Shown in pieces: positions 56,044-56,973 of a stretch of DNA of 64,000 nt. Position 1 is the stretch's first letter. The number at the start of each line of letters is the position of its first letter. The stretch lies in NCBI GenBank assembly GCA_964517775.1, contig CAZFCP010000013.1, forward strand, positions 397 to 64,396, given 5' to 3'. Origin of the DNA: an uncultured Candidatus Marinamargulisbacteria bacterium. Lineage in GTDB: Bacteria > Margulisbacteria > Marinamargulisbacteria > SXXA01 > JAHFDB01. The translations under genes and the position numbers were made by a program. Under the pieces are notes generated by a model. The model saw only the letters and a program-made list of their open reading frames with translations, was not told the DNA's origin and searched no databases.

Positions 56044-56973
56044 TTAAAATCCAGCTGCCGGCTGTAATGCATTTGGAGGTTTAGGCGTTACCGTTACAAA
56101 ATTAACATTGCCCACAGCTTTTGGACTATACTCAAATAGCGAAGCCGTTGAAAAACTTATAGGTACATCATTCCATTTTCCATTTGTACGTAATGTTAAA
56201 GCATCTTCATTTCCAGAGTTATCTGGCTGACCACTATCCCAAAATGTTGGACTTATAAGATTTCCACTTTCAGGGCCCTGAATCCACCGCCAGGTACCTT
56301 CAGAAACACTATCAGAACCTGCCAACCAAACCGTATTTCCATTAGCAGCTGTAGTAGCAAAAGTGTTTTCACTGTTATCCGCAATCGTAGTAAGATAACC
56401 AGGAATCCCATAAAATAACGCGGTTGCATTAGATTGCGCATTGGCAAAATCTACAGACGTTGTTACCAGTCTGTAAATATGACCATTGGTTGAATACGTT
56501 GAGGTAGATTCCGCTGAAATGGTTACAGGATAAATCCAGATTTTTCTTTGAAGTGTATTTGTAGATTTTGTTTGAAATGCAACACTTCTCAGCATCGTTT
56601 GAACATTTGAGGTTGTTACGCTTGTAAATGTAATCTGTAATATTTTTGTAGTGTTATCAAACGAAAAAGAAGCCCCTGTAACAGTAGCCAGACAGGTTAA
56701 TTTATCAGGATTACGAGCCGTTGAACTATCAACTTCAACATTAAATACAGCAGTCACAGGATTGACTTGGGGCAAAATAACAAGGCCAGGCCATAAGGTT
56801 GTCCAGCTTCCATCAACCGTTGTATCACGTGCAGTCGCCTGATTGTTTATAGTAAGTGTTTGAGAAAAAACCATTTTTGAGCAACTAAATGCAAACACAA
56901 ATACGCTCAAAATAAAAAACGTTTTTGTATTAAAAATCCAGATTGGCTTCGCCATAGTAATTCGTTCCATCAA
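56044..56973 (-). CDS. Secreted protein with C-terminal C-type lectin-like domain (QPD / WND motifs, cysteine-less)
   Basis: Signal peptide (start at 56973 or at the internal ATG 56955). The C-terminal ~130 aa (GHIYRLV...WLAGSDSVSEGTWRWIQGPESG...WDSGQPDNSGNEDALTLRTNGKWNDVPISFSTASLFEY) follows the CTLD long-form layout: WIGL-like, E-x-x-W-x-W, QPD, NED, WND, FxCE-like end. Confidence 0.6.
   Translation of the reverse strand: MMERITMAKPIWIFNTKTFFILSVFVFAFSCSKMVFSQTLTINNQATARDTTVDGSWTTLWPGLVILPQVNPVTAVFNVEVDSSTARNPDKLTCLATVTGASFSFDNTTKILQITFTSVTTSNVQTMLRSVAFQTKSTNTLQRKIWIYPVTISAESTSTYSTNGHIYRLVTTSVDFANAQSNATALFYGIPGYLTTIADNSENTFATTAANGNTVWLAGSDSVSEGTWRWIQGPESGNLISPTFWDSGQPDNSGNEDALTLRTNGKWNDVPISFSTASLFEYSPKAVGNVNFVTVTPKPPNALQPAAGF

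Follow-up and report, generated by a model that had tools for sequence, protein, structure and literature searches.

A predicted secreted, cysteine-free C-type lectin with homologues of both animal calcium-site ligand sets in a Candidatus Marinamargulisbacteria genome

Introduction

It is customary to teach canonical Ca2+-type C-type lectin domains as a feature of animal proteins. The classical animal carbohydrate-recognition domain (CRD) has a fold stabilized by two conserved disulfides (C1-C4 and C2-C3), and in mannose-binding protein A (MBP-A) a QPD arrangement switches the sugar site towards galactose by re-orienting hydrogen bonding; high selectivity, as in receptors of the ASGPR and MGL types, needs in addition a tryptophan and a glycine-rich insertion after the QPD, as is known from work on MBP-A QPDWG. 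Here we describe a gene for a predicted C-type lectin-like domain (CTLD) protein, hereafter the lectin, from a member of the Margulisbacteria, an uncultured sister group of Cyanobacteria. It lies on a stretch of 64,000 nucleotides (the window) of contig CAZFCP010000013.1, assigned to an uncultured Candidatus Marinamargulisbacteria bacterium (assembly GCA_964517775.1).

Bacterial proteins annotated as containing a C-type lectin domain (PF00059) occur in Bacteroidota, Chloroflexota, Planctomycetota, Proteobacteria, and others, and as far as our searches show they are uncharacterized: searches of the literature returned no experimental study of this bacterial CTLD clade and no paper on Margulisbacteria lectins. 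A second system for comparison is that of the RTX adhesins, whose ligand-binding domains project from "split" extender domains (PMC12077191; bioRxiv 10.1101/2025.09.30.679566). The word "lectin" does not occur in the second of these papers, and "C-type lectin" was not found in the text of the first, an mBio paper. We consider that the protein described here is probably a Sec-exported, Ca2+-dependent glycan-binding adhesin module, that is, a C-type lectin in the functional sense.

The lectin gene and its C-type lectin-like domain

An open reading frame (ORF) at 56044-56973 had been named in a first-pass annotation made from the DNA sequence alone; it is present on the minus strand, and every motif quoted for it was recovered on re-translation. 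The in-frame TTG at 56973 would give a protein of 309 amino acids, and a further in-frame ATG lies at 56970; the NCBI call for an identical protein (P0001) is of 303 amino acids with its start at the ATG at 56955, and all residue numbers below refer to this 303-residue form. The gene overlaps the end of its upstream neighbor, orfC, by 26 nt, and its stop is 3 nt from the convergent stop of priA (56040). Re-translation divides the protein into four parts (aa 1-31, 32-150, ~155-280, and a 23-residue tail), and the features discussed below, all on the minus strand, are as follows.

56044..56955, minus strand: lectin gene, 303 aa plus stop, start ATG at 56955 (re-translation at the exact coordinates)
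56863..56955, minus strand: predicted Sec signal peptide, aa 1-31, MAKPIWIFNTKTFFILSVFVFAFSCSKMVFS followed by Q (hydropathy and paralogue alignment)
56506..56862, minus strand: N-terminal beta-rich domain, aa 32-150 (model and homologue alignment)
56116..56493, minus strand: cysteine-free long-form CTLD, aa 155-280 (Pfam, PDB search, model, and Foldseek)
56299..56313, minus strand: D215-S-V-S-E219, loop with the acidic pair homologous to Ca2+ site 1 (alignment with DC-SIGN(R) and MBP)
56203..56229, minus strand: Q243-P-D245-N246-S-G-N-E250-D251, loop homologous to sites 1 and 2 (alignment and re-translation)
56167..56175, minus strand: W261-N262-D263 (WND), with the homologues of the last two site-2 ligands (alignment and re-translation)
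56047..56115, minus strand: C-terminal tail, aa 281-303, GNVNFVTVT and then PPNALQPAAGF-COOH (low model confidence)

The C-terminal part of the protein had been claimed to be a true CTLD, and on this point a Pfam profile, searches of solved structures, a predicted model, and structural comparison of that model all agree, with matches far too strong to be accidental. Lectin_C (PF00059), the profile proposed as a check, is the only Pfam family matched by the protein, over aa 186-265 and at 27.1 bits compared with a gathering score of 22.6; it was also matched by 39 of the 40 rows of the homologue alignment, the lectin included. A phmmer search of all PDB chains returned animal C-type lectins only, the best being langerin (E = 8e-10) and DC-SIGNR/L-SIGN (E = 4e-9), followed by mincle, MBP-C, DC-SIGN, SP-D, and CD23. 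In these alignments, QPD is paired with EPN, NEDA with NEDC or NEHC, and WND with WND, and that with DC-SIGNR runs without gaps across the functional loop (lectin WLAGSDSVSEGTWRW...FWDSGQPDNSGNEDALTLRTNGKWND versus DC-SIGNR WMGLSDLNQEGTWQW...).

AlphaFold2, supplied with a 40-sequence homologue alignment, modelled the CTLD at a predicted local distance difference test (pLDDT) value of 94-98 over aa 160-270. Foldseek comparison of the predicted model with the PDB gave 284 matches at E <= 0.001, with a probability of 1.00 to animal carbohydrate-recognition domains; the best 50 of the 284 are all animal CTLD structures, and nearly all of these are CRDs. The superposition on MBP-C (1rdi) extends over 118 columns with a TM-score of 0.92, a root-mean-square deviation (rmsd) of 1.4 Å, and 28% identity; the corresponding values are TM 0.84 for the scavenger receptor C-type lectin (2ox9) and TM 0.82, rmsd 1.9 Å for DC-SIGNR (1k9j). 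Over MBP-C, DC-SIGN(R), CD23, and SP-D together, the model gave TM 0.76-0.92 and rmsd 1.4-2.7 Å (0.76-0.82 for DC-SIGN(R)), with 19-28% identity to animal domains in the structural alignments. The best matches are thus Ca2+-dependent sugar-binding domains at TM 0.8-0.92, and not simply the generic fold of the intimins or of proteins varied by diversity-generating retroelements (DGRs). The searches and the predicted model together show the C-terminal ~125 residues to be a true long-form CTLD, modelled with the double-loop alpha/beta fold, rather than a compact domain of the intimin/invasin or DGR type.

The domain had also been described as cysteine-less, with all four canonical cysteines replaced, and both statements hold for the domain. 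Aligned with the animal proteins, A252 occupies the position of C3 and I266 that of C4, and the C1 and C2 positions are likewise occupied by residues other than cysteine. The re-translated sequence has no cysteine in aa 150-303, and the whole protein has only two, one (C25) within the signal peptide and the other (C88) within the N-terminal domain. Because aa 150-303 are free of cysteine, we place the lectin in the bacterial cysteine-free clade described below and not among the classical animal CRDs.

Calcium and sugar sites

The residues homologous to the ligands of Ca2+ site 2, the sugar site (Q243, D245, E250, N262, and D263), are all present and align with the EPN, E, and ND of langerin and DC-SIGNR; those homologous to the site-1 ligands (D215, E219, N246, and D251) are present as well and align with the SD..QEG, EPNN, and NED positions of DC-SIGNR. 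These positions we take to be Ca2+ ligands on the basis of the published MBP and DC-SIGN structures. QPD is encoded at 56221-56229 (aa 243-245), NEDA is aa 249-252, with A252 where the EDC motif has its canonical cysteine, and the quoted GTWRW is also found in the domain. The placing of QPD and WND at Ca2+-site positions, which had been proposed earlier, is borne out, in that both align motif-for-motif with langerin and DC-SIGNR. In a 40-row bacterial alignment, the invariant or near-invariant columns include D215 (invariant), E219 (nearly so), P244, N246, D251, W261, and D263. By alignment, the CTLD therefore carries homologues of all the ligands of both Ca2+ ions, with a site geometry predicted by homology.

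Sugar preference is a different matter. The protein had been called Gal-type; a QPD is indeed present, but the tryptophan and glycine-rich insertion of the ASGPR/MGL-type CRDs are absent from its loop, and QPDNSGNEDA is equal in length to the loop of DC-SIGNR and contains no aromatic residue. QPD alone is insufficient for galactose specificity, and because no stacking aromatic follows it, a preference for galactose can be predicted only weakly. The galactose-switch mutants of MBP are instructive here: of the MBP-C and MBP-A structures considered, QPD(WG) mutants included (1rdi, 1bch, and 1bcj), MBP-C 1rdi gave the best superposition, and MBP-A QPD mutants are also among the Foldseek matches, but the engineered high-selectivity mutants and the natural high-selectivity galactose binders add the tryptophan and glycine-rich loop, whereas the lectin has QPDNSGNED without an aromatic.

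Compared with DC-SIGN, DC-SIGNR (CD209/CLEC4M), and langerin, the lectin has a calcium- and sugar-site loop of equal length and near-identical sequence (lectin SGQPDNSGNEDA), the homologous site-1 and site-2 ligands, and a predicted fold that superposes at TM 0.76-0.82. It differs in having QPD instead of EPN, in an overall identity of only ~22-25%, and in lacking disulfides, a neck or coiled-coil oligomerization region, and a membrane anchor.

A large clade of bacterial relatives

A word-indexed search matched almost only the lectin itself, which would wrongly have suggested an orphan. When 1.84 billion cluster representatives were scanned exhaustively with HMMER, however, 6,232 relatives were found at E <= 1e-3, of which 1,109 reached E <= 1e-10. 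From the best 150 of the 6,232 relatives, 348 CTLD segments were delimited. Cysteine is absent from 139 of these segments; its loss is a clade-wide trait of bacterial CTLDs and not private to the lectin. The first-pass annotation had seen in this loss an adaptation to a bacterial route of secretion, a reading that is speculative. EPN is the commonest sugar-site motif (202 segments, 58%), followed by QPD (56, 16%), QPN (21), and EPD (14). Giant proteins with several CTLDs are frequent among the relatives, and they bear typically bacterial features such as signal peptides, LEPR-XLL N-termini, and PEP-CTERM, OmpA, bacterial TSP3, or TIG domains.

A profile search of an annotated collection found 183 relatives, from Bacteroidota, Chloroflexi, Acidimicrobiia, Gemmataceae, and Gammaproteobacteria, named in their sources as "lectin-like protein", "C-type lectin domain-containing protein", or "lectin". 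Their fusion partners include type IX secretion system (T9SS) sorting domains, CHU_C Ig domains, PEP-CTERM, prepilin N-termini, and flagellar hook or flagellin sequences. Given thousands of relatives, conserved Ca2+-ligand columns, and fusions to surface-display domains, the cysteine-free CTLD with a putatively intact calcium site is a widespread bacterial surface-display module, and since thousands of similar bacterial surface proteins are in the databases, the lectin joins a group that is already known. The fusions to prepilin N-terminal methylation sequences or to flagellar hook, rod, or flagellin proteins (P0263, P0264, P0271, P0204, P0205, and P0268) suggest that lectin-tipped pili and lectin-decorated flagella exist in uncultured bacteria.

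The lectin shares with this clade an NGHxY start, G(Y/H)L(A/T)TITS, W(L/I)GGSD..EG.W.W, (E/Q)P(N/D), NED, WND, a (V/F)EY ending, the frequent absence of cysteine, a preceding beta carrier domain, and export or surface display. What sets it apart is that it is small, stand-alone, and single-module, has QPD, and belongs to a Margulisbacteria-like genome; moreover, its LQPAAGF tail is private to itself and two paralogues.

Those two paralogues are found in tandem on an 85-kb metagenome contig, JACCDG010248130.1 (locus L054). One of them, P0083 (318 aa), is 38% identical to the lectin in a MAFFT alignment and 31% by BLASTP; the other, which adjoins it, is of 336 aa. Both carry EPN. All three proteins have a signal peptide followed by a homologous mature N-terminus, a lone cysteine in the context LTC, and the LQPAAGF end. 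L054 may derive from the same or a closely related organism, since its G+C content (0.413) matches that of the window (0.412) and it comes from a sister whole-genome shotgun set. A separate 1,350-bp JACCDT contig, from a set of more than 560,000, was considered as a pointer to a eukaryotic host assembly; this was rejected, as the sister set JACCDG is a metagenome set and carries the paralogues on the 85-kb bacterial contig. The closest relatives of the CTLD alone (P0053, P0062, P0100, and P0073; 44-54% identity) have the same short ISPTFW..QPDNSGNEDY loop; they are on metagenome contigs of 1-2 kb and have cysteine-rich C-terminal tails, and in one case several CTLD genes lie in tandem. These relatives may be either bacterial or eukaryotic, so that a transfer between domains of life may have taken place.

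Export, carrier domain, and C-terminal tail

The lectin had been described as secreted, and this is supported by a hydrophobic N-terminus (aa 1-31, ending VFS|Q, with a hydropathy peak of 2.9 over aa 13-23) and by the homologous mature N-termini of its two paralogues (AFS|QVLTITNQ versus VFS|QTLTINNQ). Cleavage is predicted after aa 31, a site placed by aligning those mature N-termini. A reading of the N-terminus as that of a lipoprotein (AFSC) was discarded, the lipobox being poor and not kept in the paralogues. No sortase, exosortase, or T9SS sorting signal (a transmembrane helix and basic tail, or a C-terminal domain of ~80 aa) was found in the lectin, which ends ...LQPAAGF; relatives carry PEP-CTERM or T9SS C-terminal domains, and the lectin is without either and also without a type I secretion system (T1SS) signal.

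The N-terminal domain matched no Pfam family. It was modelled at pLDDT 79-93 for aa 70-140 and contains one helix, TSNVQTMLRSV, corresponding to the YQxxLRxVxY motif that is typical of adhesin repeat modules. Many giant bacterial adhesins have the same beta carrier domain ahead of their CTLDs; N-domain and CTLD occur together in 66 of the CTLD segments from the best 150 relatives, and single-module proteins of this composition and like size are also known (P0083, P0134, P0137, and P0082). Even in single-module proteins, the CTLD is followed by a short stretch resembling a beta strand (GNVNFVTVT in the lectin, SGNVTVN in other proteins), and this strand and the N-terminal beta domain together probably form a stalk from which the lectin projects, in a split-domain arrangement.

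In this respect the RTX split extenders may be similar: they have a beta-sandwich carrier with the ligand-binding domain inserted before the last strand or strands, an arrangement that the post-CTLD strand would fit, and the module of the lectin recurs inside giant adhesins of the LEPR-XLL/T1SS type. Missing from the 303-residue lectin, however, are a retention module, an extender array, an RTX beta-roll, and a T1SS signal; it carries a Sec-type signal peptide instead.

The final seven residues, LQPAAGF, preceded by N[AS], are identical in the three closest lectin homologues, whose overall identity is only ~30-38%. Their positions are given here.

56047-56067 of the window, minus strand: LQPAAGF end of the lectin
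L054:9917-9937, plus strand: LQPAAGF end of a paralogue
L054:10874-10894, plus strand: LQPAAGF end of a paralogue

Six-frame scans of the 64-kb window and the related loci found no other ORF with this ending. Because neither a transmembrane helix nor a basic stretch lies behind it, the heptapeptide is not of the sortase or exosortase type; its role may lie in docking, processing, or sorting. C88 (56692-56694, minus strand; the cysteine of LTC) is likewise present in all three LQPAAGF lectins and is not part of the generic module of other bacteria. As the sole cysteine of the mature protein, it could make an intermolecular disulfide.

The four-gene unit and its host

The lectin gene is the last of four co-directional genes, of which orfA and orfB overlap by 14 nt and orfB and orfC are 4 nt apart.

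58665..58693, minus strand: intrinsic-terminator-like hairpin with a 13 bp stem and T-run, strong; 5' boundary of the orfA-orfB-orfC-lectin unit
58054..58512, minus strand: orfA, 152 aa as called, first gene of the unit; paralogue of orfC (E = 1e-6)
57444..58067, minus strand: orfB, 207 aa, hydrophobic N-terminus; C-terminal ~110 aa match PHROG 9017 "tail fiber protein" (E = 2e-6)
56930..57439, minus strand: orfC, 169 aa, signal peptide (MKKILVIVLLLGCFSSSAFA followed by D); GIGxxxP motif and weak similarity to phage tail fibers

The products of orfA, orfB, and orfC are mutually paralogous and have a (V/L)GIGxxxP motif and phage tail-fiber-like C-terminal domains. An operon with three other secreted proteins had been proposed, and this is largely right, four tightly spaced genes lying behind a terminator; N-terminal signal sequences, however, are found in only two of the three, orfB and orfC, as orfA has none as called. 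The called start of orfA is MDSV, and upstream of it (58513-58625, minus strand) lies an in-frame signal-peptide-like core with a cleavage site, DFIPIFIFLLFFCQSFVSAQ, that has no usable start codon; ATGATGAAAGCAATG is also found upstream, one frame off and among T-runs. Because a signal-peptide-like sequence is in frame but without a start codon, the region probably reflects a 1-nt assembly indel, a true frameshift or pseudogene, or an unusual start. On the far side of the hairpin, a small basic protein of 67 aa (MAVEFYDVKERKK...; 58716-58919, minus strand) is encoded, ended by the strong terminator at 58693-58665; it has no family assignment and is 78% identical to a protein next to atpB in a related metagenome-assembled genome (MAG; L003:7548-7802).

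AtpA of the window is 82-84% identical to that of MAGs assigned to Candidatus Margulisiibacteriota/Marinamargulisbacteria and at most ~60% identical to all others; these related MAGs are from groundwater, deep Lake Baikal, and marine samples. In one relative (L030; 2189-7817, minus strand), the same spot upstream of atpB is occupied by four larger, secreted, tail-fiber-like paralogues of 415-641 aa, with PHROG tail-fiber matches down to E = 8.5e-15. Because the whole cluster is absent at L003 while L030 holds these larger paralogues, the locus looks, from gene content, like a variable island of tail-fiber-like surface proteins in Margulisbacteria, with no phage genes around it.

Proposed function and alternative explanations

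As a Ca2+-dependent glycan-binding adhesin module, the lectin would be exported by the Sec pathway as a protein of ~29 kDa, and the N-terminal carrier domain and post-CTLD strand would serve as the stalk presenting it. A terminal sugar with two adjacent hydroxyls would complete the coordination of the site-2 Ca2+, and the QPD would bias this site, weakly, towards an equatorial/axial pair of 3- and 4-hydroxyls of the galactose kind. Since the lectin ends a unit of paralogous, tail-fiber-like, exported products, it might, more speculatively, decorate or cooperate with a surface fiber made of them. Candidate ligands are a polysaccharide of the cell itself or of a neighbor, or a eukaryotic glycan.

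The first-pass annotation had taken a CTLD in a bacterium to point to a eukaryotic surface, and this we do not follow. The clade of the domain is bacterial and very large, and because it includes free-living phyla with T9SS, PEP-CTERM, pilin, and flagellar fusions, the presence of a CTLD is uninformative about a eukaryotic target; nothing in the data points to a eukaryotic ligand, and the nearest relatives were recovered from metagenomes of free water and groundwater. In one case, a Marinamargulisbacterium lives as a symbiont within placozoan cells, joined to the host membrane by structures resembling fimbriae (PMC6784892). That symbiont keeps the idea of a eukaryotic ligand open, but the lectin itself is no indicator of a eukaryotic host.

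Several observations weigh against the reading of the protein as a Sec-exported lectin adhesin. The model is of low confidence in aa 1-64 and in the C-terminal 20 residues, and because it is so at the post-CTLD strand, the split-domain topology that we infer is unproven. No solved member of the bacterial clade was found among the PDB matches, so that the closest structures are those of animal proteins, and no mechanism for anchoring the lectin is evident. Finally, both paralogous lectins of L054 have unrelated neighbors with no orfA-C-like genes among them, and the syntenic site upstream of atpB in L003 lacks the whole cluster; the association of lectin and orfA-C is thus not conserved, and a functional link between them is weak.

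This last point bears most directly on an alternative that casts the lectin as the distal adhesin of a fiber built on the cell surface from orfA-C, like the tip of a phage tail fiber, with LQPAAGF docking it on the fiber or on a sorting machine. The four tightly overlapping genes behind a single terminator-bounded start would suit such a fiber, as would the matches of orfB to PHROG tail-fiber families, the four larger paralogues at the same position in L030, the fusion of other bacterial CTLDs to pilins and flagellar proteins, and the preservation of LQPAAGF in three otherwise divergent lectins. Against these must be set the neighbors of the L054 lectins, the confinement of the LQPAAGF ending to the lectins in the window and related loci, and the possibility that orfA is defective, and we judge a fiber-tip role unlikely.

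The calcium sites could also have been kept for a target other than a glycan, namely, a protein partner, a mineral surface, or ice. Among animal CTLDs there are many that do not act as lectins, and the fish type II antifreeze proteins are themselves CTLDs; those of herring and smelt, which depend on Ca2+, work through a QPD site. The type II antifreeze protein of sea raven is among the PDB sequence matches (E = 2e-5), and the nearest AtpA relatives are from groundwater and the deep water of Lake Baikal, which are cold settings. However, CTLDs that do not bind sugar usually lose site-2 ligands, whereas all five homologues are kept in the lectin and conserved across the clade; the closest solved relatives, by sequence and by fold, are all sugar-binding domains; and the antifreeze match is weaker than about 45 lectin matches. 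A non-glycan target is, in our estimation, quite unlikely.

A far more elaborate proposal would treat the three LQPAAGF lectins as a Margulisbacteria-specific class of stand-alone split-domain C-type lectins, in which the heptapeptide, as a novel signal for docking or sorting, mounts the lectin on tail-fiber-like surface filaments (orfA-C and the larger paralogues of relatives), and in which these filaments attach the cell to a eukaryotic partner through its galactose-bearing glycans. Taken as a whole, this would be very unlikely.

An origin of the gene in contaminating eukaryotic DNA, or in an animal host by very recent transfer, might be entertained because the best solved relatives are animal proteins and because the Marinamargulisbacteria include an animal endosymbiont (PMC6784892). 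Its setting is bacterial, however: the gene overlaps a bacterial operon neighbor, its stop is 3 nt away from priA, and its G+C content matches that of the surrounding DNA; in addition, a further metagenome contig carries the identical protein beside the same bacterial neighbor. Its sequence is nearer to bacterial CTLDs (30-54% identity) than to animal domains (19-28% in structural alignments), and it has the features of the bacterial clade, including the NGHxY start, GYLTTI, an extra xxYxG insert, the EY ending, and the carrier domain. We regard contamination or recent transfer as highly improbable. The remaining alternative, a hypervariable DGR-type or an intimin/invasin-type fold used for protein recognition and not a Ca2+ lectin, would be natural in that these are the best-known bacterial CTLD folds, but it is almost certainly wrong, as the best 50 structural matches are all animal CTLDs with no intimin, invasin, or DGR protein among them, the homologous Ca2+ ligands are intact, no direct or inverted repeat family touches 56044-56973 in the 24 kb searched (40-64 kb of the window), and no reverse transcriptase was noticed among the neighboring ORFs, which were not scanned systematically for one. 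With no repeat family touching the lectin gene, a DGR template/variable repeat pair is excluded within those 24 kb, and the DGR hypothesis was rejected.

Read as a glycan-binding module, the lectin would be a compact bacterial example of a complete two-calcium sugar site, predicted from its aligned ligands, that does without disulfides. With 272 mature residues, one module, and a single cysteine (C88) outside the CTLD, it may be a convenient model for a large bacterial clade, and it could serve as an easily expressed scaffold in lectin engineering. For the biology of the Margulisbacteria it is a candidate adhesion factor.

Other genes in the window

A secreted protein of 2,207 aa (44729-51352, minus strand) contains ~17 tandem Ig-like repeats of 282 nt (94 aa) with matches to Big_3_3, Big_13, fn3, and Y_Y_Y, and is probably a giant surface adhesin or an S-layer-like protein; it is followed by a secreted protein of 305 aa without a Pfam match (43801-44718). 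In the 252-aa product of 51432-52190 (minus strand), a Schlafen/AlbA_2 domain (Pfam, E = 4e-9) at the N-terminus is joined by a linker rich in Pro, Thr, and Ser to a C-terminal part of winged-helix-like appearance; the protein may be a transcriptional regulator or related to defense. At the other end of the window, a 257-aa protein with a signal peptide (3229-4002, minus strand) has a C-terminus, ...ITWGF, that resembles the signal of outer-membrane beta-barrels, and beside it is a 1,679-aa protein ending ...SFHGF (4027-9066, minus strand); by inspection, this pair would fit a diderm envelope with BAM/TAM-type assembly.

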